This document shows, piece by piece, positions 3,500-44,977 of a stretch of 59,038 nt of DNA. A program made the position numbers and the translations under genes. The notes below the pieces were generated by a model. It was not told the origin of the DNA. It worked only from the letters and a program-made list of their open reading frames with translations, and did no database searches. This stretch comes from a bacterium (lineage in GTDB: Bacteria; Patescibacteriota; Patescibacteriia; UBA9934). Position 1 is the stretch's first letter; every line of letters starts with the position of its first letter. Location: the NCBI GenBank assembly GCA_027592325.1, contig JAQCKO010000006.1:1-59038 (forward strand), written 5' to 3'.

Positions 3500-4884
3500 A
3501 GCTTTTCAAGTGCCCAATTTCGTACTAACCAGGTTGCCCGAACATCATCTTCATTGTACTCAATGATATCTTTTCGTGCAGATTCATCTCCATTTTCTAT
3601 CCATTCGTGGTACCACAGTATCGAATCTAAGCCCGACGCATCTGGAATTCTCCACTTGAATCCAAGCTGTTTTGCGACATCTTTCAGGGAATAGAATGGC
3701 GTTGGGAAAATCACTGATTCGCGCATTGGAGGGAGCACATCAACCAATCGATTTTGAAACAAGGCCTTTACCTTTTCAGGAGCGTCATAGAGTTCGACTT
3801 TTTTACGAAAAACATCTTGCTCATACCATCCATAATGATACATGCGCACTGTATCGGGGAATGTGTCCAGATACGCCGTAAAAGCTTGCCAAGCGGTTTT
3901 TTCATCTTCCGGTTTTTCTGCAATGAATGCTTTGTATTCCTCTTCCCCGTCTTTAATAACCAAAAGCCCAAATAAATAATCCACATCACGAAGTGGGTCT
4001 GATTCAATGTCGACCACGAGTGCAAGATTGTCATCATCCGCTGGAAGTGCAACTGGTGAAAGTGTAATAATGTTGCCTTCTTTGAGCGCAATCGCCTGTT
4101 GCTGCAAAAAGAGAAGACGATCTTCTGTCATCCCCGTGACTGACCGGAGTGCATCTTTCGTTGCCCGTGAAAGCCCCTCTACAGTGTCTATGCCCGCTGC
4201 TGAAAGTGCCTTTGCCTCACTTCTCCAAATGCGATTGATGAGCGAAAGATCATCGCAGCCTTTTGCCCCTTCTGTGCATTTATGAAACCAAGGCGACTGC
4301 TTACAAGCCGAAGTCAAAAAATGCGCTTCAGCATGACCTTCAAGAATCGACTCAATTTTATCTAGCGTAAGGGCATACTCGAGCTCAAATGACTCAAGCA
4401 AATAACTGCTCATATGCCCGTCACCGTGCAACACATAACCTTGTACAGGACGAACACCTTGAAGCCGCTCTAACATATCGGCGTAAAAACTGCCCTGAAA
4501 CTTATATTCATCCTTTAGCCGTGATGAACGCTTTATGTCGCAAGCGATGTAATACCATTTTCCAAGATCAGAATCACCCTCAACACGCTCAAGTAGATCA
4601 GGCTTACCGACCCAAGTGCCATGAATAAGCGTGCCCTTATAGATTGTTTCCACCCCTTCTTTCATGAGCTCAAGGGTACGTTGCGCCGCTTCATCAAGAT
4701 CATCAAGCTCTACGCTGACATATTCTCGTCCTTCGAGTAGTACTTTTTCTTTTTCCGGCAGCAGTCCCTCATCTTGCAGTGTGCGACGAAGTGCTTCCCG
4801 ATCATCACCAAGATCCCGCTCATGCGAAAGCCATGAGGGACAGGTAAGATATTTGTAGAAGCTTTGATCGGTTACTCTATTCAG
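3496..4884 (-). CDS. TM0106-family RecB-like putative nuclease with C-terminal RNase H-like domain
   Basis: GKPDLLER...DIK (PD-D/ExK), VDIESDP, YNEDDVRAT. The frame stays open 73 codons upstream of the ORF-track start, to CTG at 4884 (NRVTDQSFYKYLTCP). Confidence 0.75.
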   Translation of the reverse strand: MNRVTDQSFYKYLTCPSWLSHERDLGDDREALRRTLQDEGLLPEKEKVLLEGREYVSVELDDLDEAAQRTLELMKEGVETIYKGTLIHGTWVGKPDLLERVEGDSDLGKWYYIACDIKRSSRLKDEYKFQGSFYADMLERLQGVRPVQGYVLHGDGHMSSYLLESFELEYALTLDKIESILEGHAEAHFLTSACKQSPWFHKCTEGAKGCDDLSLINRIWRSEAKALSAAGIDTVEGLSRATKDALRSVTGMTEDRLLFLQQQAIALKEGNIITLSPVALPADDDNLALVVDIESDPLRDVDYLFGLLVIKDGEEEYKAFIAEKPEDEKTAWQAFTAYLDTFPDTVRMYHYGWYEQDVFRKKVELYDAPEKVKALFQNRLVDVLPPMRESVIFPTPFYSLKDVAKQLGFKWRIPDASGLDSILWYHEWIENGDESARKDIIEYNEDDVRATWLVRNWALEKL

Positions 4885-34258: not shown

Positions 34259-35380
34259 TTAATGCCTTGCCGTTAAATACACTCCCTCCACCTGCTCTGC
34301 AACCTTATCCCAAGAAAAATCATGCTCAACAATCGCGCGTGCCTCTTCCCCACCATCATGAACACGCGATGTACTCCGAAGAAGCGACTGAAGCTTTTTC
34401 GTTAAATCATCCACATCTCCTTTCTTAAATGTCTCCCCGGATTGCTTAATCGCCTCTTTATTCCCTGCGATATCGGAAACAAGCGGCATCACCCCCGCTG
34501 CCATTGCTTCGAGCACGACAACAGGCAAACCTTCTGAATCGGAAGGATGTACATACAAATATGCTCCGGCAAAAATCTTCTCTACCACATCATGTGGCTG
34601 CCTTCCTAAAAACCGAATCCGATCATCCCCATCCGCTAGGGCAAATAATGCATCAACATAGCGAGCAGTATCGCTTGTATCGCCAACGAGAACGAGTCTG
34701 CGAGTCGTTCTCAGTCGTCGAAACGCCTCAATTAAATAATGTAGGCCTTTTTCTGGCACAAGGCGTCCTACAAACAGGATATACTCTTTCGACTTGATGC
34801 TAAATGCGGCCAGCGCCTGGTCTAAGTCTTTTTTCTTATACGCAACAATCTCTGCGCCATTTGGTATATACACCACCTGTTTTCCGAATGTTTCGCGACA
34901 ATACATCTGAATTTCATGCGAGACGGCAATGGTGTAATGCGGAAAAAGCACTGAAGCACGCTCTGAACATCGCAAATACATCCGGCCAAATAACCCCCAT
35001 TTTGCATGTAACGCATCGCGCGCATGAAAGGTGGCGATGACAGTTGTTTTTGGTCGGAACAGCCGAACAAGCGCACCAAATGTTGACGCACCTACGCCGT
35101 GGTAATGAACAATGTCGTAAGGATGCAGGACTACGTGAAGCGTCGCAACAAAGGCATGTATACCAGCCTCAACCCCTTTTATTGGGATCGTTGGAAGATA
35201 GACAAGTGGAATAGTGTCGATATGCGACTCAGGCTTCGCATAGTATCGCCGACGCGCAGCAACTCGCACGGCATGACCAGCCTTAAGAAGTCGAAGCGAT
35301 ACTTGCCGCACATGCTCCTCAATGCCCCCAAAACGCGTTGCATCGCCAATACCTTTTTGTCCAATCATGAAAATACGCAT
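34259..35380 (-). CDS. Glycosyltransferase family 4
   Basis: GGIEEHV, VGRLVPEKG, PSDSEGLPVVVLEAM. Confidence 0.92.
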   Translation of the reverse strand: MRIFMIGQKGIGDATRFGGIEEHVRQVSLRLLKAGHAVRVAARRRYYAKPESHIDTIPLVYLPTIPIKGVEAGIHAFVATLHVVLHPYDIVHYHGVGASTFGALVRLFRPKTTVIATFHARDALHAKWGLFGRMYLRCSERASVLFPHYTIAVSHEIQMYCRETFGKQVVYIPNGAEIVAYKKKDLDQALAAFSIKSKEYILFVGRLVPEKGLHYLIEAFRRLRTTRRLVLVGDTSDTARYVDALFALADGDDRIRFLGRQPHDVVEKIFAGAYLYVHPSDSEGLPVVVLEAMAAGVMPLVSDIAGNKEAIKQSGETFKKGDVDDLTKKLQSLLRSTSRVHDGGEEARAIVEHDFSWDKVAEQVEGVYLTARH

Positions 35381-35697
35381 AGCAGAAGTATAACAAACCG
35401 TGTACCACCACACCTGGGCGTTAAAAGGGTGCTACATGAACCAAACGCTCCGTAACCAAGTTACGGAATGATGGGTTCATCGTTGATGTTAAACGAGCGA
35501 AGCGATTTTGTCACAACGTTCCGCAGTATGCGAAGTCCCGCCCTTCTTTATCAGCACAAACTTTCACTTCACAACAAATCTAATTTACCGCTTTAAACTC
35601 TCAATTTCAAGAGCGGGATTTGAGTGAAGTGAAGAAGAAATTATTGATTTTTTTCCTTAAATTTAGGGCTTTTTTTAATTTTTTTGTCCTTCGTAAC

Positions 35698-35726
35698 TTG
35701 ACAGGTGGGAAGAGGTCTGCTATGAT
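35698..35726 (+). promoter_or_regulatory. Sigma70 promoter with extended -10
   Basis: TTGACA-17-TATGAT preceded by TG. Confidence 0.75.
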
Positions 35727-35764
35727 GTAAAGTCGCAATTCCGCGACTAATGTAGGAGGACAAC

Positions 35765-36151
35765 ATGAAGTACGCTTTTGTTCGGTACGACGTAAATCGC
35801 AAGGTTGCCGATGGCGGCACCAGCTTCCATAGCGTTCTGATCAAGGGAGAGGCGTCTGAAACCCGCGAATCCTGCCAGAGGTGGATCGAGGAGAACTTCT
35901 CGCCCAACGGCCCGGTCAGGATCCTCTACCGATTCGAGGTACCGGAGGTGTGGACAGAGGATGCGGGCGAGTTCGACGGCTGCCTGAACAGCGCCCTCGA
36001 TGCGGTGACGGGTCTCGACGCACTCACTAACAGTCCTCTGGCGTCCGACCTTCTCGGCGCGATCTTCATGGCGGGGTTCACCTGTGGTATGAGGTTCGAC
36101 TCGGAACTGCAGTCGGCGTTCTACCGAGGTGGCGCAGCCAAGAATAAGTAG
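35765..36151 (+). CDS. Hypothetical protein (antisense minigene inside S1)
   Basis: 128 aa, SD AGGAGG, own promoter, hairpin CGCCCTGTTC/GGACAGGGCG at about 36174-36203. Confidence 0.8.
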   Translation: MKYAFVRYDVNRKVADGGTSFHSVLIKGEASETRESCQRWIEENFSPNGPVRILYRFEVPEVWTEDAGEFDGCLNSALDAVTGLDALTNSPLASDLLGAIFMAGFTCGMRFDSELQSAFYRGGAAKNK

Positions 36152-36296
36152 CTATCGTGTACTTCCGTCAAAGACGCCCTGTTCGAGACATCTTGGACAG
36201 GGCGCTTCACTTTCTGAGAGAAAAAATTGAAAAGAGCCCAATTAAAAATGAAAAGCAAAATCAATAATTTCTTCTTCACGCAACCGCATACTCAGT

Positions 36297-36382
36297 GTTG
36301 TGCGATGTCGCGTAGCGATGAGCACGACAGCGACGATAGGCGCCGCCGTTGTGACGAAGAAGCGAAGCGATTTTGTCACAAC
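36297..36382. repeat. Empty micro-cassette module B + mini-site + D
   Basis: Same module at 43499-43584 and 44632-44717. Confidence 0.8.
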
Positions 36383-36472
36383 GTTTCTGCATATGCGATG
36401 TTTTGCGTAGCAAATATGGGTGAATTGAGTAGGAGGTACGACGACGAACGGACCGCATATTCTGTGTTAGGC
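36376..36472. repeat. attC-like site S2
   Basis: TCACAAC..ATATGCG / CGCATAT..GTTAGGC. Confidence 0.75.
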
Positions 36473-36489
36473 GATGGATAAATAATTTT

Positions 36490-36927
36490 CTATCTATTCA
36501 TGTGAATTGCCAAAACCGTCGGTCTCAATCCTAAAGCGCGGCAGCCGAGGAGTCTGGAATCTCCTGCTAGTAAGTTTGGTTGGTGTCCTTCTCGGAAAAG
36601 AACTACAGGAGCGGGTATGACTGCACCGTTCCTGAGTCCATCTTCGATTTTTTGAAAATCACGTTTGCCTTCCAGATGCTCATGTATTTGTTCACTTGTC
36701 CATGTTGTGTCTCGAGAATCACAATTTTTCATATTTTCCCACTCTTCATCACTAAGCTCCTGTAGCTCTGCTCGTTTGAATGCTTCGATAAGGGAATTAA
36801 GAGCAATTCCAGACTCCTTGGCATGTCTTTCAAGTTCTCCCATTTCTTCTGCAAGTGATGGTTTTAGCCATTGAGGTTTTGGCAATTCATTTTCTGCGCC
36901 AGCTTCATATGATGGAAATTCACTCAT
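36490..36927 (-). CDS. Cassette hypothetical protein (possible ParB/Srx-like C-terminal motif)
   Basis: 145 aa; APVVL...LLAGDSRL loosely resembles ParB-N. Confidence 0.7.
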   Translation of the reverse strand: MSEFPSYEAGAENELPKPQWLKPSLAEEMGELERHAKESGIALNSLIEAFKRAELQELSDEEWENMKNCDSRDTTWTSEQIHEHLEGKRDFQKIEDGLRNGAVIPAPVVLFREGHQPNLLAGDSRLLGCRALGLRPTVLAIHMNR

Positions 36928-36956
36928 ATTGATAGTTTAAAAATTTTAAATCTTTC

Positions 36957-37045
36957 GCCTAACGGCGGCGCCTGATGCGATCGTTTCGAGAGATAAAACC
37001 GAAGGTTTTAGATCGAGAAATGTCGCATAGGCGCTGCCGTTGTGA
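36957..37045. repeat. attC-like site S3 (type A)
   Basis: AACGGCGGCGCCTGATGCGA...TCGCATAGGCGCTGCCGTT; followed by D at 37039-37073. Confidence 0.8.
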
Positions 37046-37066
37046 CGAAGAAGCGAAGCGATTTCG

Positions 37067-37184
37067 TCACAACGTTCGCGCATATGCAGAGTTGTTGCGC
37101 GGTACAATTTAGCGCGGAGCGCTCTACCGCGCAACAATTTGGGTGAGCGACCGCAAGGAGCGAACTGCATATGCGCTGTTGTAC
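37067..37184. repeat. attC-like site S4
   Basis: CGCATATGCAG / CTGCATATGCG arms. Confidence 0.78.
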
Positions 37185-37198
37185 GATGTGCGGCTTTC

Positions 37199-37609
37199 TT
37201 ATTCTTTTACCGGTGTTCCTTGGTGAAATTTTAATTTCCAACCTTTCGGCGTTTTGACCCAGATAGAGCTTCTATTACCTACCTCTACTTCTCCATCATA
37301 CTCAACTTCGCTGGTGTAAGTAACCTGAATGACATCTTGGGCGATGGGGCGCATTTCAAAATTTTTAAAAGGTAGCCTTGCTTTGATTTCATCCCGACGT
37401 GCACCAAGCGTATCTTCCCGTTGGTATATGCGCCCCGATCGCCCGAATTCAAAAAAATCCGGAGCAAGTACACTTTCCATATATACTCTGTCAAATCGTG
37501 TTTCAGCTATCCACATTGAATCTTCAAGCTGCCTTAGTTTTTCACGGTCCTCCTTGCTAATCTCAATCTCTCGTTCGTGGCTCATAGCTAACTCTTTTTT
37601 TGAATTCAT
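37199..37609 (-). CDS. NTF2-like / DUF4440 family protein
   Basis: LAPDFFEFGRSG, RSSIW, WKLKFHQGT. Confidence 0.85.
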   Translation of the reverse strand: MNSKKELAMSHEREIEISKEDREKLRQLEDSMWIAETRFDRVYMESVLAPDFFEFGRSGRIYQREDTLGARRDEIKARLPFKNFEMRPIAQDVIQVTYTSEVEYDGEVEVGNRSSIWVKTPKGWKLKFHQGTPVKE

Positions 37610-37657
37610 ATGTCATTCAGGTTACGTTAGTAAATGATTTTAAGAAAGCCGCATTTC

Positions 37658-37798
37658 GTACAGCGGCGGCGTGTATGAGAAGTTTCGCCGACTTCCTTAT
37701 CCTTATTATAGAGGAAGTGAAATTTGGGTGAAAGAAAAAGTGCAACCTTTGAAAATTATTACGCATTTTTTTCTTGAACCTCATACACGCTGTTATGT
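37658..37798. repeat. attC-like site S5 (R box degenerate: AGC)
   Basis: GCGTGTATGAG / CTCATACACGC arms; closely similar to S6. Confidence 0.72.
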
Positions 37799-38359
37799 GC
37801 TGTTGGTTGCCGATTTAATCGCACTGAATATTGAATGATAATCAATACTTTCAAAGTCGGTAGTGTCTATGTCAAAAACTTTGCCTCCTATATTAAGGGC
37901 CCGATATTCGCCTTTTAGTAGAACTTCTTTGAACTCATCATAGTTTTGATCGTCAACGTGACCTGGATGACGCTCGCGAGATTCCGAACGCTTTTTGAAA
38001 CGCTCAAAGAGAATTTCGCCGTCGGTTTTGCACATTACTTGCATTGCCTGAAAATCATATTTTTTCTGCAAATCAAGGAATCTCTCTTCGTCATATTCAG
38101 GTTTCAGTGGTGTTTCTATGATGAATGAATTTTTTGACTCTAGCAGCGTTTCGATGAGGTGATAGAGAATGTTATAACTTGCAATCCCTAGCTTCTTTGA
38201 CCATTCACGATCTTTCACGCCAAGAGAATCAAAGAGAGATTCCTTGATGTCATCACGACTAATTAAAGGCAGGCGAAATTCTCGTGCTATTTTCTTTGCA
38301 AGAGTCGTTTTTCCGGTACACGGAGGGCCCGATATTATTAAAAGCAAAGTTTTTGACAT
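37793..38359 (-). CDS. P-loop kinase (AAA_33-like)
   Basis: IISGPPCTGKTT; stop TAA inside the GCACATAAC R box. Confidence 0.85.
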   Translation of the reverse strand: MSKTLLLIISGPPCTGKTTLAKKIAREFRLPLISRDDIKESLFDSLGVKDREWSKKLGIASYNILYHLIETLLESKNSFIIETPLKPEYDEERFLDLQKKYDFQAMQVMCKTDGEILFERFKKRSESRERHPGHVDDQNYDEFKEVLLKGEYRALNIGGKVFDIDTTDFESIDYHSIFSAIKSATNST

Positions 38360-38389
38360 GTTTTTATTTTAACTTAGGCAACCAATTGC

Positions 38390-38531
38390 ACATAACGTTT
38401 GCGTGTGTGAGAAGTTTCGCCGACTTTCTTCATTTTATAAATAGAGGGGGCGAAATTTGGGTGAAAGAAATAGTGCAACCTTTGAAAATTATTACGCATT
38501 TTTTTCTTGAACCTCATACACGATGTTGTAC
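38390..38531. repeat. attC-like site S6
   Basis: CGTGTGTGAG / CTCATACACG arms. Confidence 0.78.
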
Positions 38532-38557
38532 GATGTTGCGAGACAACCGTCGTTGCA

Positions 38558-38863
38558 TTATTCCGTTCTATCTAAAATTATTCTTTGCTTAAAACCACCA
38601 CGTTCTTTCGCTTTTTTCTGGCGGACTTCTTCGAGCATCTGCAAATCCACACCTTTCAGAGCGCAAATTGCGTGTAAAACTTCTAAAATATCAGCGGCCT
38701 CTTCCACGCTTGGATTTTCTAGAAATTCACCGACTTCTTCGTGCAACTTGCGCGTCAAAGCTTCCTCGTACTCTTTTTCTTCAGCAATATGAGTAATCGG
38801 CGTCTCACCTTTATTTTGTATGATCTCGGGAATGTTATCCCTGACTAATTTGTTGTATTCCAT
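38558..38863 (-). CDS. MazG-superfamily NTP pyrophosphohydrolase (KLVRD-IPE type)
   Basis: YNKLVRDNIPEII, KLHEEVGEF, EAADILEV, RGGFKQRI. Confidence 0.85.
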   Translation of the reverse strand: MEYNKLVRDNIPEIIQNKGETPITHIAEEKEYEEALTRKLHEEVGEFLENPSVEEAADILEVLHAICALKGVDLQMLEEVRQKKAKERGGFKQRIILDRTE

Positions 38864-38908
38864 AAGAAAAAGCGGAATTAATATATAATAGGTTGTCTTG
38901 CGATTTCG

Positions 38909-39036
38909 TCACAACGTTTCTGACATGCGAAGTTGAAAACCCCCGCCTCCTAGTTCAATCTTATCAATAAGAGCAGGGTTTTCAATTTGGGTGAGGGCTT
39001 TCATAAAAAGCCCGAACCACATGTCCAGTGTTAGCT
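38909..39036. repeat. attC-like site S7
   Basis: GACATG / CATGTC arms; AATTTGGGTG...AACC core. Confidence 0.72.
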
Positions 39037-39205
39037 GAAATATTCCTTTTCTTTTCCTACGATAGTCGGTTGTTTTGAAAATTTTCAAATTTCTTTTCGA
39101 CAATGAGGAGGAAGAGCGAATATTAACAATTTAACACACAAATGGTAGTTTGTAATGTCATTTCTTGACCCGATCAGCTGTGGTTAGCTGGTATTGGAGG
39201 AGTCC

Positions 39206-39589
39206 ATGAATCGCACGATCAGGCTGACCGAGCTGTCTTTCGAGGACGGCATCACCAGACGGGACTCTGAGGTGAAGTACTTCGTTCAGGCGGAGTACAG
39301 CTACGTGGAAAATGAGGTCATCATGGGCCTTTACGCTGGTGACGAACACTTCGACCGAGTGTGGAGCTTTCCGATCGAGCTCCTGCTCGAGGGCCGAGTG
39401 GTCGACTTCAGCAACTTTGAAGGCCCTTACATCCTCGCCGATGCAGTACTTGCAATCGTCGCCGAGAACACGTCCGTCAGGCTCCACTTCGTGGAGGACC
39501 GAAGCGTAGTTAGCATCACGGTTTGTGATGAGACCGTCTCTCACCCTCTGGACAACGACGTGGCTCGCCGGATGTTCAGAGGGATCTGA
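39206..39589 (+). CDS. Hypothetical protein (antisense cassette minigene)
   Basis: SD GGAGGAG at 39196, ATG 39206; hairpin GAACCGCCTAC/GTGGGCGGTTC downstream. Confidence 0.8.
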   Translation: MNRTIRLTELSFEDGITRRDSEVKYFVQAEYSYVENEVIMGLYAGDEHFDRVWSFPIELLLEGRVVDFSNFEGPYILADAVLAIVAENTSVRLHFVEDRSVVSITVCDETVSHPLDNDVARRMFRGI

Positions 39590-39723
39590 CCTCCGATCGA
39601 CTCCCCGCCCCCTACGAACCGCCTACTGGTTCATCTGGTGGGCGGTTCTTCGTTTTAGAAAGAAATTTGAAAATTTTAAAACAATTGGGCGACAGCCCAG
39701 AAAAGAAAAGGAATATTTCAGCT

Positions 39724-39780
39724 AACAGCGACGATAGGCGCCGCCGTTGTGACGAAGAAGCGAAGCGGTTTCGTCACAAC
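39724..39780. repeat. Mini-site + empty micro-cassette D
   Basis: AACAGCGACGATAGGCGCCGCCGTT then GTTGTGACGAA...TTCGTCACAAC. Confidence 0.78.
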
Positions 39781-39867
39781 GTCAGGGATATGAGAAGTTG
39801 CGACCGTAAGGAGCAATTTGGGCGGAGGATTTTGTACAAAGCCGTAGCCTCATACACGCTGTTATAT
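39774..39867. repeat. attC-like site S8
   Basis: ATGAG / CTCAT arms; AAGTTGC..GCAATTTGGGCG core. Confidence 0.7.
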
Positions 39868-39953
39868 TCCCGAAGGGCTGAAATTTAGTGCAACGTCCCG
39901 AAGGGAAATTTTAGAGTTGTCGTGTCTAAAACAAAATTGTAGTCGGGCACACA

Positions 39954-40991
39954 CTAATTCTCAAATATTTTTTCAATCAATTTAAATTCTTTTTTATGGC
40001 AATCAAACTCAGCTTTTATTCCTAATGGCAAAATCCATTGCGGATCAGTATGACCAAAATCCATATTCGTGATTATCGGAAGACTTAAATTATTAAACTC
40101 AGTATTTACCACATTGAGAACATTTTCGTTTAAACTTTTCTTTTCATCTTCAGAATAGTCTCTTGGTCTTCCGATAAGCAATGCGGAGATTTTGTCAAAC
40201 ACTCCTTGTATTCCATAGTTTCGTAGCATCCATTTGACTTGGTCTGGAGATGGCTTGTCTTCAGATGTTTCTAAGAAAAGGATTTTGCCATTCCAAAAAT
40301 CATCATTAGGCCAATATTTTGTGCTTTTCATAAATTCAAGAACCTCAATACAACCGCCAAATAATTCTCCTTGAATTTTTGAACTTCCTTGTAAAATATT
40401 CCAGCCAGTATTTTTTGACATTGGTTTTACTTGCCCGACATTGGACTTGTCTCCCCAATCCAAATATCCCTCGGAATAAGAATCATATGACTTGTATTCA
40501 TAATTTTCTGGATTTTCAAATAAGATTGTTTTGACATGCTCTTGGAAATTTTTCCCTAATGCATCCCATTGAGAAAATCCTGCCATGATTGCAGGACCAT
40601 GTAGAGTGACAAGTCCTAATTGATTAAAGTATGTCAAAAGAGTGGTTGTATCAGAATAACCGATGATGATTTTTGGGTTTTTCCGAATTACATCTACACT
40701 TAGAAAAGGCATTATTCTTACAGAATCATCCCCGCCGATTGATACAAAAATTGCTTTCACTTCTTCATCAGCAAAAGCATCATTTATATCTTTGGCTCTA
40801 AATTCCGGATTTTTGTAAAGATAATCTGCATCTTTTCTTGCAGAGGGATATTCTTTAATTTTAAGACCTAAATTTTCAAGCGTCTTAATGCCTGATTCAT
40901 AAATATGAGGAAAAACACTTGGTCCGCCCCACGATGGAGATACAATTGCAACGATATCTCCTTTCTGTAATTTTTTTAGTTTGATTGCCAT
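39954..40991 (-). CDS. S66 family peptidase (LD-carboxypeptidase / MccF-like)
   Basis: IVSPSWG, SIGGDDS, IGYSDTT, LFLETSE, MDFGHTDP. Confidence 0.92.
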   Translation of the reverse strand: MAIKLKKLQKGDIVAIVSPSWGGPSVFPHIYESGIKTLENLGLKIKEYPSARKDADYLYKNPEFRAKDINDAFADEEVKAIFVSIGGDDSVRIMPFLSVDVIRKNPKIIIGYSDTTTLLTYFNQLGLVTLHGPAIMAGFSQWDALGKNFQEHVKTILFENPENYEYKSYDSYSEGYLDWGDKSNVGQVKPMSKNTGWNILQGSSKIQGELFGGCIEVLEFMKSTKYWPNDDFWNGKILFLETSEDKPSPDQVKWMLRNYGIQGVFDKISALLIGRPRDYSEDEKKSLNENVLNVVNTEFNNLSLPIITNMDFGHTDPQWILPLGIKAEFDCHKKEFKLIEKIFEN

Positions 40992-41063
40992 ACTATTTTG
41001 ATAAATTGATTGATTTATATAATTTGTATGCCCGACTACTCCTAATTAATTTGCACGACAATT

Positions 41064-41150
41064 GAATATACGGTGGCGCCTGATGCGTTCGTTTCGAGAG
41101 ATAAAACCGAAGGTTTTAGATCGAGAAATGTCGCATAGGCGCTGTTGTGC
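41064..41150. repeat. attC-like site S9 (type A, left R box degenerate)
   Basis: GAATATAC instead of ATATAAC; type A body. Confidence 0.72.
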
Positions 41151-41177
41151 GATGTTATAAAATATTAAATTTTATCC

Positions 41178-41726
41178 TTACAATTTTAATACAGATTTCA
41201 AAGCGGCTGGAAGTTCGTTTACTCCATCGTCACCGCTAAAATGTTTCATATCTTGTTGAATAATAATGTCTGCGCTGAGGTTATTCCTGAAGAAGTCGGC
41301 ATAATGAAGCGAAACATACGGATCATTGGATGAATGAATGGCTACAAATTTATCGCAGTGAGATTTTATTTTAGACCAATCTATTTTACTTTGGAAAAAT
41401 GTGTCCAATTCATCATAGCCCAGATTTGAAGTGAAACCAGCGACTAAAACTGCGCCGCCAATTTTTTGATCTGCCTTGAGCGACTCGATATATCTCAATA
41501 TTATAATACTACCCAAACTATGACCAACGAAATAGCAGTTTTCATCTGGGCTACCGACAAGTTTTTTCAAATGATCTAGCCATTCATTCATCTTTGGTTT
41601 CGCTGAATTTGGCATCAAAGGAACAATTACCTCAAACCCGTGTTTCTCCAAATCATTCTTGAGCCAAGGATACCACCCATGTTCGGGTGAACCTTCCCAG
41701 CCGTGTATTAAAATTGCTTTTTTCAT
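41178..41726 (-). CDS. RBBP9/YdeN-family alpha/beta hydrolase
   Basis: IHGWEGSP...WYPWL, VGHSLG, HSSNDPYV, KHF. Confidence 0.92.
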   Translation of the reverse strand: MKKAILIHGWEGSPEHGWYPWLKNDLEKHGFEVIVPLMPNSAKPKMNEWLDHLKKLVGSPDENCYFVGHSLGSIIILRYIESLKADQKIGGAVLVAGFTSNLGYDELDTFFQSKIDWSKIKSHCDKFVAIHSSNDPYVSLHYADFFRNNLSADIIIQQDMKHFSGDDGVNELPAALKSVLKL

Positions 41727-41755
41727 AATCGTAAAATGTAATATTTTTTATTTCG

Positions 41756-41832
41756 TCACAACGTCAGTTGTATCTGATGTTGCGAAGCAAATATGGGTGG
41801 AACGTAGCGGAACCGCATAGCCAGTGTTATGT
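41756..41832. repeat. attC-like site S10
   Basis: TCACAAC...GGGTG..AACCGCATAGCCAGTGTTATGT. Confidence 0.7.
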
Positions 41833-41858
41833 GCAATACCCTTCGTCCGTCATCTTTG

Positions 41859-42677
41859 TCATAGCAAACCTTTACCAGAATTGATAACAATGATTTTATC
41901 TTCCTTTTTTATTTTCAAATCTGACAACACCCCAAATACAATAGCACTGGAAGGCTCACATTTGATGTATTTTTTTGCAAGTGAGTAGGCTTGTTTTATT
42001 GTTTCTTCTGACAATCTAATTACTTTGTGTTTGCGCCAAAATATTGATTTCATTTTTGAGGAATAAGGTGTCCAGGGAGTGTGAAGTTTATCAGCAAAAG
42101 ACGGACTACTTTTTGGCGCAACACCAATAAGCGTGGTATTCAATTTGTATTTTTTTATTCCATTAAACAAGCCTGCGAACGTCTCGCCGCTACCCACTGG
42201 CGTGATTAAAAAATTTGGCCGGCTGTTTTTGATTTCTTTGATGATGTCCTCATATGCATCGTGCCAGCCATTAGTCACGTCCCAGATGACTTCCTCGTCA
42301 GTTTCTCTCGCCAAAGAAATAACCTCTTCAGGTTTGAGTATGTGAGATGACAAATCAACCTGAATAACTTTGCAAGAAACGGTGACGAGATTTTCGTAAA
42401 TTGTGGCAGGAAGTTTTTTATCAACAATACAGACGACTTTAAGATTGGAGCCGTTGGCAAATTTGGCGAGAGAAACGCCAGCATTTCCGGACGTGATGAG
42501 TGCTAGCTTATCAATATGTTCATCCAGCGCTTTCTTGACGATAGCTTCGGAGCGCCTATCTTTGTATGTCCCAAATGGATTTTTAGACTCGTCTTTAATA
42601 AAAAGATTAGGCAGACCAAATTTTTTACAAAAATATTCTTCTTTAATTAAGGGGGTGTTGCCTGATTTATATTTCAT
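41859..42677 (-). CDS. PLP-dependent fold-type II enzyme (threonine synthase/cysteine synthase-like)
   Basis: GNTPLI, KDESKNPFGTYKDR, TSGNAG, PVGSGET, CEPSSA. Confidence 0.88.
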   Translation of the reverse strand: MKYKSGNTPLIKEEYFCKKFGLPNLFIKDESKNPFGTYKDRRSEAIVKKALDEHIDKLALITSGNAGVSLAKFANGSNLKVVCIVDKKLPATIYENLVTVSCKVIQVDLSSHILKPEEVISLARETDEEVIWDVTNGWHDAYEDIIKEIKNSRPNFLITPVGSGETFAGLFNGIKKYKLNTTLIGVAPKSSPSFADKLHTPWTPYSSKMKSIFWRKHKVIRLSEETIKQAYSLAKKYIKCEPSSAIVFGVLSDLKIKKEDKIIVINSGKGLL

Positions 42678-42748
42678 AATGACAAAATCATTGTGACATT
42701 GTATAAAAACATTTCTACAATGTCAGCAATAAGGACGAAGGGCATTGC

Positions 42749-42900
42749 ACATAACGGCGGCGCCTGATGCGATCGTTTCGAGAGATAAAACCGAAGGTTT
42801 TAGATCGAGAAATGTCGCATAGGCGCTGTTGCGACCAACGGGAGCGAGAATGTAGGTGAAGGCCGAGCCGAGGCCTGAACCGCATATCGTGCTGTTAGGC
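42749..42900. repeat. attC-like sites S11 (type A) and S12 separated by a 12-nt body
   Basis: Type A at 42753-42830; GTTGCGACCAAC at 42828-42839; S12 ends AACCGCATATCGTGCTGTTAGGC. Confidence 0.7.
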
Positions 42901-43012
42901 GAGGGTTCATTTTGGCTTCCTTATTATTTAATCAAGAAAAGATCCAAAATGAAAGCGCAGCGCCCCCTTACGTTTATTTTTCCAAACTGCTTTTCACACC
43001 AGCTTTCGCTAC

Positions 43013-43041
43013 TTGACAGTTTGCCCACCTCATGGTAATCT
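43013..43041 (+). promoter_or_regulatory. Sigma70 promoter with extended -10
   Basis: TTGACA-17-TAATCT preceded by TG. Confidence 0.7.
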
Positions 43042-43099
43042 GCAACGTCCTTTGGACTGCGCCTCAAGTGGGGCGTAAACCCGCACTTTGGAAGAAGAA

Positions 43100-43303
43100 A
43101 TGAAAGTCAAGACTTTCGTGGTCGGATTGGTCGATGGGGTGGTCCCATCGTTGACACGACTCGACGAATGCGTCGCCGAGCTCGGTAATGTCGTCATCCA
43201 CAGCTTGGTCGACACCGTCTACTCGGCGGATAGCAATTCGTTAGGAAGACCGCCGGGTGAGCGCATCGCTCGAGTGATCGTCTACACACCCGAGAGCAGG
43301 TAG
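43100..43303 (+). CDS. 67-aa hypothetical protein (antisense cassette minigene)
   Basis: Own promoter; hairpin CCCGTGTTTG/CAAACACGGG downstream. Confidence 0.7.
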   Translation: MKVKTFVVGLVDGVVPSLTRLDECVAELGNVVIHSLVDTVYSADSNSLGRPPGERIARVIVYTPESR

Positions 43304-43419
43304 CCCCCCGTGTTTGCACGCAACATCGTCAAACACGGGCGGGCAAACACATTCACTCTACCGAGTGTTTTTTTATTGTACAAAATTTTCATGAAAAGCG
43401 ATTTGATAAAATAAATGTC

Positions 43420-43584
43420 GCCTAACGGCGGCGCCTGATGCGATCGTTTCGAGAGATAAAACCGAAGTTTTTAGATCGAGAAATGTCGCATAGGCGCTGT
43501 TGTGCGATGTCGCGTAGCGATGAGCACGACAGCGACGATAGGCGCCGCCGTTGTGACGAAGAAGCGAAGTGATTTCGTCACAAC
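43420..43584. repeat. attC-like S13 (type A) + B + mini-site + D
   Basis: Near-identical to 44553-44717. Confidence 0.82.
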
Positions 43585-43687
43585 GTTTATGAATATCTGA
43601 TGTTTTCATCCCGTTTCATGGAGATAAAGTTTATTTTTCAGGCATTCTTTGTTCGTAAATATTCCGCCCAGATATTCATTGTTATGT
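43578..43687. repeat. attC-like site S14
   Basis: ATGAATATCTG / CAGATATTCAT arms. Confidence 0.78.
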
Positions 43688-43731
43688 GATGTAGCCAGAA
43701 ATTTCTATTCCTAAATTATTTTGTTGGTAAT

Positions 43732-44002
43732 TTATTGTTTGACTTCGATGCTTTCCGAAGCAATATTTTTTTGCTTATCTTTCTTGCCCACGACTAATTG
43801 ATAGATTTTTCTTACAACAATAATGAATACTACAAACCCTACAATTTCAGCGACTGCCTCAAGATTTGCTGCTGCCCTTGGGCCTGAAATTCCCATCGGA
43901 CCTAACACAAATGGCCCAGACAATAAAAGCGTGTATTTAGCGATCATCCATGCGACGTAACCTACTAATACACTTGCGATACCTCCGAGTATTTTTTTTC
44001 AT
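43732..44002 (-). pseudogene. Small membrane protein cassette, frameshifted in an A8 run right after ATG
   Basis: ATG 44002 + A8 is out of frame with KKILGGIASVLVGYVAWMIAKY...; A7 would give a ~89-aa two-TM protein. Confidence 0.6.
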
Positions 44003-44114
44003 AAGCTTTTGAATAACGTTATGTAATTGGTTAAATTTTATCACAAGCTATGTTCGACCTGAAATAAATTGCCAAAAAAATCTAAAAAATAATAAAGAAA
44101 TTTCTGGCTATTTC

Positions 44115-44192
44115 ACATAACGTTTCTGAATATCTGAAGTTGCGATAGCAATTTGGGTGAAGCGAAGCGGAACCAGATATTCAGTGTTATCG
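44115..44192. repeat. attC-like site S15
   Basis: CTGAATATCTG / CAGATATTCAG arms. Confidence 0.8.
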
Positions 44193-44203
44193 GATGTAAT
44201 TTT

Positions 44204-44527
44204 TTATTTATCTTTTTTCAGCCATGCATTGCTGATCCACTTTTTATCAATAGCTTCTTCTAAGTCGATACCGAGAAGATGAGCATTGACCATTGCCATA
44301 CCAACAACATCAGCAAGCTCTTTTGCCACCTCTCTTTTTGAAACATCTTCCGTCACATGTTTCTCTGGACGACTCTTTTTTCTATGAATCAAAACTGCTT
44401 GCGAAAATTCACCAACCTCTTCATATAATTTTATCAATGCGAAATCTTCGTCAATTTCAACATCATACTCCTTACCGTAACGGATAGCATTCTCCACTAC
44501 TTTTTGTTGTATATCTTTGAATTTCAT
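44204..44527 (-). CDS. MazG-like nucleotide pyrophosphohydrolase
   Basis: KLYEEVGEFSQA, KELADVV, DLEEAIDKKW. Confidence 0.85.
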   Translation of the reverse strand: MKFKDIQQKVVENAIRYGKEYDVEIDEDFALIKLYEEVGEFSQAVLIHRKKSRPEKHVTEDVSKREVAKELADVVGMAMVNAHLLGIDLEEAIDKKWISNAWLKKDK

Positions 44528-44552
44528 AAAAAGAAAAATTAAAAATTATTTC

Positions 44553-44717
44553 CGATAACGGCGGCGCCTGATGCGATCGTTTCGAGAGATAAAACCGAAG
44601 GTTTTAGATCGAGAAATGTCGCATAGGCACTGTTGTGCGATGTCGTGTAGCGATGAGCACGACAGCGACGATAGGCGCCGCCGTTGTGACGAAAAAGCGA
44701 AGCGATTTCGTCACAAC
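44553..44717. repeat. attC-like S16 (type A) + B + mini-site + D
   Basis: First module of the array in transcription order. Confidence 0.82.
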
Positions 44718-44775
44718 TCGTTTTTATCCGAACATTATAATACGATTTTAGCAATTATTGTACATAATACGAACT
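44711..44775 (-). promoter_or_regulatory. Candidate attI site and Pc promoter
   Basis: GATAAAAACGAG|TTGTGA core, 9-bp direct repeat, extended -10 TGCTAAAAT. Confidence 0.45.
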
Positions 44776-44901
44776 ATCCCTGTTGTTGAGGCAGCCTTAT
44801 TCGATTATGCCATTTGACATGAAATCCACCAAACACCTTCTAGCGGTGGATTCTTACCCCATCAAAAGAAAAACACCCAAGCTTTCACTTGCGTACTTTT
44901 C

Positions 44902-44977
44902 TGGTGCGCCGGGTGGGATTCGAACCCACGACCACGGGCTTAAAAGGCCCTTGCTCTACCAACTGAGCTACCAGCGC
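44902..44977 (-). tRNA. tRNA-Lys(UUU)
   Basis: 76-nt cloverleaf, anticodon TTT, TTCGAAT T-loop, encoded CCA. Confidence 0.97.

Follow-up and report, generated by a model that had tools for sequence, protein, structure and literature searches.

The window analysed in this work is a 59,038-nt stretch of DNA in which all housekeeping genes, including mreB, the S-adenosylmethionine synthetase gene, murG, ftsW and mraY, are carried on the minus strand. An exact look-up of the encoded MurG found no recorded entry. Its best named relatives were Patescibacteria/Parcubacteria MAG proteins at ~43% identity and, in a search of 5.8 billion proteins, the nearest protein beyond a 99% twin was 50% identical; because the MurG relatives are this distant, the host was placed, on protein similarity, as a deep-branching, uncultured, Patescibacteria-like bacterium. 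A scan of genome contigs with MurG returned a single unrelated Defluviitaleaceae locus and no close relative in which the tRNA-Lys locus could be compared. Between a GT4 glycosyltransferase gene (34259-35413) and a tRNA-Lys gene (anticodon ttt; 44902-44977, minus strand) lies a 9.2-kb block of short ORFs split by imperfect palindromes with ...AAC / GTT... boxes. The 3' end of the tRNA is 185 nt from position 44717, where the block ends, and is followed by a terminator-like hairpin and T-run (44866-44901, minus strand) that is also kept in L003, the contig of the relative with the 50% identical MurG. In L003, ~45 nt of the tRNA-Lys end and terminator are duplicated around a ~180-nt insert (4190-4490) and an IS1595-family transposase gene is present between murG and tRNA-Lys, making the tRNA-Lys region a target of other mobile DNA in that lineage. 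A tRNA-targeting genomic island was ruled out for the window, as the window has no second copy of the tRNA 3' end, even with up to 3 mismatches allowed, that could mark a far border, and no integrase by the tRNA.

The block was read as a cassette array (35497-44717, minus strand) of ~16 attC-type sites and ~11 ORF cassettes, with 10 of 11 cassette ORFs on the minus strand. The ~16 sites carry xxxxAAC ... GTTxxxx boxes, and each cassette has an R'' complementary to the upstream R'. Compensatory changes were found in the L''/L' stem, where 117 of 121 positions pair across 11 sites versus 66% when partners are swapped; 2-4 pair types occur at 10 of 11 stem positions and one position is invariant. 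Folding of the presumed attC bottom strands gave z scores between -3.2 and -6.4. Their L stems are uninterrupted over 11 bp and so lack the two extrahelical bases expected in the L box of a folded attC; asymmetry is provided by a bulge of 3-4 nt on one side versus 1 nt on the other. The layout, AAC-A-L''(11)...L'(11)-NAAC-GTT, has the same direction as in the recombinase-linked platform loci described below, where the cassettes run away from the recombinase gene. attC sites are normally conserved in structure and not in sequence; in the short attC type of this array, a loop motif, C(A/C)CCAAATT, is conserved across several organisms (window 44146-44155, 37138-37147 and 38457-38466; also contigs L004, L010, L012, L016 and L018). 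A gapped pattern built for the short attC type matched one window site and was hence left out of the metagenome scan. The array qualifies as a CALIN, in which at least two attC sites occur without an integron integrase close by; it is chromosomal, has no flanking transposases, and is bordered by tRNA-Lys/murG on one side and the GT4 gene on the other, without the adjacent intI of a complete integron. The GT4 gene was ruled out as a final cassette because no attC follows it.

The first element of the array is a mini-cassette, a 35-nt hairpin (GTTGTGACGAAATCGCTTCGCTTTTTCGTCACAAC; 44683-44717, minus strand) that is also first after attI in platform contig L009. It is closed by a long composite attC ('D2-long'; 44552-44682, minus strand; R' = GTTATCGG at 44559-44552; fold z -6.4). 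Copies of the mini-cassette (GTTGTGACGAAATCGCTTCGCTTCTTCGTCACAAC) are located at 44683-44717, 43550-43584, 39747-39781, 37039-37073 and 36348-36382, with a degenerate copy at 35481-35517, and mostly precede the long composite attC; the leader also opens ORF cassettes at 38915 and 41762 in the window and in L005, and begins cassettes in L004 as well. The mini-cassette may perhaps represent a mobilised right half of attI. At the distal end (35497-35517, minus strand), after the last R' (GTTGTGAC) come a mini-cassette leader that is truncated or diverged, then unrelated sequence and the GT4 gene. Several internal sites are irregular: in the attC after the PALP cassette (41755-41835) the L'' and L' arms are unpaired, making it a hybrid, one R' core has mutated to GCT in place of GTT (~37657-37664), and the orf128 cassette is joined at G|TT within the 51-nt 5' part of the long composite attC (39725-39727). 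The loop of the last attC holds a ~650-nt GC-rich insert (35629-36279) with 23-bp perfect terminal inverted repeats (GTGAAGAAGAAATTATTGATTTT), encoding a reverse-oriented 128-aa ORF (35765-36151) with no Pfam hit and its own TTGACA-17-TATGAT-like site; comparable reverse-oriented GC-rich genes are found in attC loops of L010 (two) and L012.

The MazG-like cassette (44185-44559) was recovered at ~97% identity (12 differences in 375 nt) from unrelated aquatic/marine metagenome runs (X3 and X4), with homology stopping exactly at the cores, which shows the cassettes to be independently mobile. In X3 and X4, the downstream attC type accompanies the MazG-like cassette and the upstream attC type is missing (depth 0). 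Those runs also hold a cassette with the end sequences of orf71 (43680-43743 and 44043/44059-44121) but another interior. Based on the direction of the ORFs, the attC layout shared with the platform loci and the cassette/attC linkage in X3/X4, position 44717 is assigned as the integrase-proximal head of the array and 35497-35517 as its distal end. Orientation from extrahelical bases is ambiguous, the attC sites having none, and the evidence above was used instead.

On the minus strand the sequence across the head junction reads ...GGATAAAAACGAG|TTGTGACGAAATCGC..., that is GATAAAAACGAG|TTGTGA with G at 44717. An earlier note on this DNA had claimed that the array ends abruptly at this site, and comparison of the mini-cassette copies bears this out: the array contains six copies of the 35-nt hairpin GTTGTGAC...GTCACAAC, of which every internal one runs on into G and the remainder of an attC and the one at 44683-44717 into TCGTTTTT, and therefore homology ends precisely at the AAC/GTT core. 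A junction of this kind is judged too precise for a random deletion scar. It is hardly credible that the junction is an assembly artefact in which a repeat-rich array was mis-joined to the tRNA-Lys region: the array is full of 60-180-nt repeats and a collapse is possible at one 684-nt unit with 142-nt repeats, but an independent assembly (L002, 99.96% identical over 19.3 kb) concurs at 44717, and in run X1 a single unbranched 2873-nt unitig crosses the junction, from 44664 into murG, with no differences and at the depth of the unique flanks.

The 684-nt unit is the sole difference between the window and L002 and lies 7.7 kb from the head (window ~36953-37094; L002 19297-19838). Identical 142-nt repeats border the extra unit in L002, which is made up of an ORF cassette (143 aa), a mini-cassette and an attC. 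It was rejected as evidence of cassette turnover, given the identical repeats and the presence of the L002-specific attC in X1 unitigs; because X1 contains that attC, the shorter form in the window may be an assembly collapse and not a strain difference. Run X1 is the only run that holds the tRNA-Lys/array-head flank, and in it the head is uniform, without heterogeneity. The expectation of the earlier note that variation would be concentrated at the head was accordingly disappointed in the material available: none was seen there.

A metagenome scan with the mini-cassette leader led to L009 (the overlapping contig L008 continues its array), in which the leader directly follows ...TTCGTATATAAACCAG| and a gene for a 271-aa tyrosine recombinase starts ~119 nt further upstream on the opposite strand. 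Other platforms were obtained as contigs with homologs of the L009 recombinase (57-71% identical), for a set of seven distinct platforms: L009, L010, L011, L012 (=L013, L014), L015, L016 (=L017) and L018 (=L019), whose recombinases are 57-100% identical to one another. An attI-type site is found ~120-220 nt upstream of the divergent 271-aa recombinase gene in 7/7 of these independent Patescibacteria loci. Intergenic conservation among platforms reaches ...TTCGTATA(G/T)A(A/T)AC(G/C)AG and then breaks off exactly at G|TT, after which six different first cassettes are found across the platforms, followed by attCs of the window's type, including those with C(A/C)CCAAATT. After the G, L010 continues with TTAAGTG... 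(320-aa ORF first, with its own attC R'' CACTTAAC), L012 with TTGTACG... (mini-type first cassette), L015 with TTGCGGA..., L016 with TTAAATG... (142-aa ORF first) and L018 with TTGTGTG... (118-aa ORF first). Conservation up to G|TT with differing cassettes beyond is the comparative signature of attI. Between gene and site, the platforms carry a leader hairpin beside the recombinase start codon (CCTCGT...ACGAGG), a conserved promoter-like TTTACA-17-TATTAT facing the array, a conserved block, GCAAGATGTGGA, upstream of the core, and a perfect palindrome with 10-bp arms, ATATACGAAA-TGT-TTTCGTATAT, whose right arm runs into the attI core. This intergenic region (L009 5304-5422; L010 5880-6000; L012 9880-10000; L018 6880-7000) is better conserved than the recombinase protein. 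Synteny of a P-type ATPase beyond the array between L012 and the window was considered and ruled out, the proteins being just 30% identical.

The 271-aa recombinase matches PF00589 (E 9e-43) and has the full R-K-H-R-H-Y catalytic set (R, K, HxxR, H, Y). It just passes the NCBIfam 'XerA / integron integrase' model NF040815 (222 bits against a cut-off of 220) and falls under the cut-off of the integron-integrase model TIGR02249 (205 against 265 bits). Its best solved-structure match is VchIntIA (2a3v; E 9e-43), with which it shares the complete catalytic set and a position divergent from attI and an attC array, but the alignment to 2a3v splits so that query residues 171-194 face IntI 174-240, leaving the platform enzyme ~43 residues shorter in the region of the additional domain. 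The platform recombinase is accordingly classed, from these comparisons, as IntI/XerA-like and without the IntI-specific additional domain. The platform-type attCs differ from those of IntI systems in a parallel way, having an uninterrupted 11-bp L stem with a 3-nt bulge and not two extrahelical bases. The additional domain is what defines integron integrases and contacts the extrahelical bases of the folded attC. Its acquisition is accepted as the step that turned Xer-type into integron-type recombination (PMC4792948, PMC7790495); archaeal integron integrases are stated to have the domain (PMC9668308). In the literature searched, no description was found of integrons in Patescibacteria/candidate phyla radiation or of integrases without the extra domain.

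The same enzyme raises the alternative that the platforms belong to Xer/dif biology: the 271-aa protein would be a housekeeping Xer, the palindrome dif-like and the arrays IMEX-like, and the window head would be a half-site moved by Xer recombination at the palindrome centre. Recombinase length and domain layout are those of XerA/XerC/XerD, the NF040815 model is passed, thousands of homologs are conserved across Patescibacteria, a perfect palindrome adjoins the recombinase gene, and window homology begins at AATGTT, the palindrome centre. Use of folded single-stranded DNA by Xer is known from CTX phage. This account is nevertheless quite improbable, given that in every locus the cassettes are joined at G|TT, 8-10 nt beyond the palindrome, that the cassettes have integron-like attC hairpins with AAC/GTT cores, that the best solved structure is an integron integrase, and that the arm motif in the left flank of the window is direct and not inverted. 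Elements integrated at dif, such as CTX phage, also differ in being single integrated elements, in contrast to a multi-cassette attC array with junctions outside the palindrome.

Anchored at the crossover, the 16 bases before it in the window (TTCGGATAAAAACGAG|TT, spanning 44732-44715, minus strand) are identical to the platform cores at 13-14 of 16 positions (L009, L010, L011, L012, L016 and L018). Equally good matches to platform cores are made by 1-2 of the 118,000 16-mers of the window (both strands), the head among them. When the seven distinct platform cores were turned into a weight matrix, the head scored 21.6 bits and the next best position in the window 12.7, the platform sites themselves scoring 24-30.5. 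A degenerate form of the core was found once in each of 12 loci, always at the head, and was absent from 7 loci, including L015, whose core lies outside the pattern; its 41 matches in a viral-contig collection serve as a chance control because none has a recombinase or an array. A read aligner independently placed the window's own X1 unitig onto L009 5408-5444, starting 15 nt before the crossover. At -12, where all seven platform cores have T, the window has G. Its T-run ahead of the core is 2 nt shorter than that of the platforms, and a 2-nt gap extends the homology to AATG, giving an attI-like core, AATG--TTCGGATAAAAACGAG|TT, at 44715-44736 (minus strand) with the crossover between 44717 (G) and 44716 (T). 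Beyond about -22 no similarity to the platforms is left, and free local alignment of the whole window flank to the platforms gave p ~0.2. On this match, the core at the window head is homologous to the recombinase-linked attI of the platforms.

Homology to the family's attI thus extends in the window to the core and not to the full platform. The leader hairpin, the conserved promoter region, block GCAAGATGTGGA and the left arm of the palindrome are all absent, and their place is taken by AT-rich unrelated sequence with two direct TCGTAT(TAT) copies, a hairpin and the tRNA-Lys terminator. The earlier note had proposed an attI, and indeed an intact insertion platform, at this position: the attI assignment holds for the core (13-14/16; 21.6 versus 12.7 bits) and lapses beyond about -22, and the description as intact is not supported, with ~22 nt resembling a platform, the palindrome left arm and promoter region missing and one invariant base changed.

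The unrelated flank past -22 would also fit an attG-type origin, in which a recombinase acting in trans used an ordinary GTT behind tRNA-Lys for a first cassette, the array grew from there and the likeness to attI is accidental. Integron integrases insert at many genomic GWT sites, which have been proposed as seeds of small CALINs, and the window shares with attG the presence of chromosomal cassettes away from an integrase gene and by a possible resident promoter (10.1101/2022.09.11.507474). However, attG sites share ~3 bases, GWT, whereas the window head has 13-14 of 16 bases of the family attI and is the single top weight-matrix hit in the window; a rough estimate from the 41 viral-contig matches gives well below one chance copy of the core per 1-Mb genome. 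The junction is therefore judged too similar to the family attI for an ordinary GWT secondary site, and an accidental attG-type origin is very unlikely.

The 9-bp repeat, extended -10 sequence, ~44822-44851 hairpin and 185-nt distance to tRNA-Lys described in the earlier note were all present where it had placed them. The direct repeat, TCGTATTAT on the minus strand and ATAATACGA on the plus strand, has copy 1 at 44764-44772 and copy 2 at 44737-44745. Its proposed role as an accessory attI repeat gains from the presence in each copy of TCGTAT, the arm motif of the platform palindrome, and is weakened by the finding that a 9-bp exact direct repeat also arises in 5% of dinucleotide shuffles of 44718-44870, which makes it marginal. 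TCGTAT itself has 24 occurrences in 118 kb (both strands), of which two are within 55 nt of the head. Two overlapping promoter-like sites face the array (44737-44773, minus strand), with consensus matches at chance level. Site 1, picked by the promoter tool, is TGTACA-16-TATTAT (44764-44737), its -10-like TATTAT overlapping repeat copy 2; site 2 is TTCGTA-17-TAAAAT with a TG extension, corresponding to the TGCTAAAAT of the earlier note (ATTTTAGCA at 44745-44753, read on the minus strand as TGCTAAAAT, 44753-44745). Promoter-like sites numbered 3 in the 850 nt scanned versus 1.4 expected from shuffles, which is not significant. A putative promoter for the cassettes, the Pc of the earlier note, is plausible, as the two overlapping sites point into the array; no RNA runs holding window sequence were found. 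Folding also predicts the hairpin AATCCACC/GGTGGATT (~44822-44851, minus strand); it separates the tRNA terminator from the attI-like region and might act as an additional terminator.

No tyrosine recombinase was detected in the 59 kb, either by Pfam searches of 15 non-cassette ORFs (12 of them at least 290 aa) or by tblastn of the window with the L009 enzyme. When X1 contigs were aligned to L009, only the window junction was matched and the recombinase was not; X1 likewise held no nucleotide match of at least 80% to the L009 recombinase gene, a search that is uninformative for a diverged gene. Because just ~22 nt of a platform are present and the recombinase side is replaced, the head, whose core is homologous to the platform insertion site, is probably an orphan attI core heading a CALIN. 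The junction arose through site-specific recombination at G|TT, which joined a cassette attC to the attI-type core TTCGGATAAAAACGAG|TT. A same-family recombinase encoded elsewhere in the genome, acting in trans as the earlier note had proposed, could bind the core, with GATAAAAAC as L box, a 2-nt spacer and GTTGTGAC as R box, and perhaps also the TCGTAT repeats. Single-strand exchange with an incoming attC, folded from its bottom strand, would land new cassettes at 44717/44716, and cassettes near the head would be transcribed from a promoter-like site at 44737-44773. Two origins are conceivable for the core: descent from a full platform whose recombinase side was lost, or selection of a native pseudo-site through recognition by the recombinase.

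The site could alternatively be a relic, a former full platform split from its recombinase gene by rearrangement, now inactive and heading a decaying graveyard of cassettes. Consistent with this are the ~22 nt of platform that are left, the altered invariant position, the decayed internal sites (an R' with GCT and attCs with non-pairing arms, some attCs being hybrids), the invariance of the head and the lack of a recombinase within 59 kb. Against it, the simple site of L box, spacer and R box is complete and has two additional arm motifs upstream of the core, the array is large and holds cassettes near-identical to ones circulating elsewhere, and CALIN cassettes are usable in trans (PMC9668308). 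A relic is accordingly unlikely, and we continue to favour an orphan attI core.

The orphan core resembles a classical attI (e.g. attI1, with L/R boxes and DR1/DR2) in heading an array, in the G|TT crossover, in an A-rich, L-box-like element whose terminal AAC is separated from the R box by 2 nt, and in the short motif repeated upstream; in the related loci the likeness extends to a divergent adjacent recombinase gene. attI1 reads ...CTAAAACAAAG|TTAGGC, and attI1, attI2 and attI3 have no sequence homology to the window site. In further contrast to classical attI, the recombinase gene is not adjacent in the window, and the accessory motifs are direct repeats in the window and a palindrome in the related platforms. 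Its ~16 attC-type sites and the lack of an integrase gene in the 59 kb put the array in the CALIN category of IntegronFinder, from which it differs in beginning with a core homologous to a recombinase-linked insertion site; to our knowledge, CALINs are not expected to retain a recognisable attI.

A broader reading, that an integron-like system with a domain-less 271-aa integrase and bulge-type attCs is widespread in Patescibacteria and that the window is a split version of it with a functional core served in trans, is advanced tentatively and may well prove wrong. Its interest lies in arrays that have a clear attI beside a domain-less recombinase and whose attCs lack extrahelical bases. If true, recombination of single-stranded cassettes would not need the domain that defines IntI, and domain-less enzymes may be intermediate between Xer recombinases and IntI; should the system be active, ideas on how integrons arose could be tested with real enzymes, and such platforms in small-genome bacteria would be scored by standard tools as integrase-less clusters. 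An array with a 16-22-nt attI core far from a recombinase gene would be a natural test of the minimal platform for capture in trans.

A short inverted match of 7-8 nt was also noted on the two sides of the array, TAAACGAG at 35490-35497 and CTCGTTTT at 44717-44724 (both plus strand), which may be due to chance or to homology of the distal end to the cassette leader of L005.
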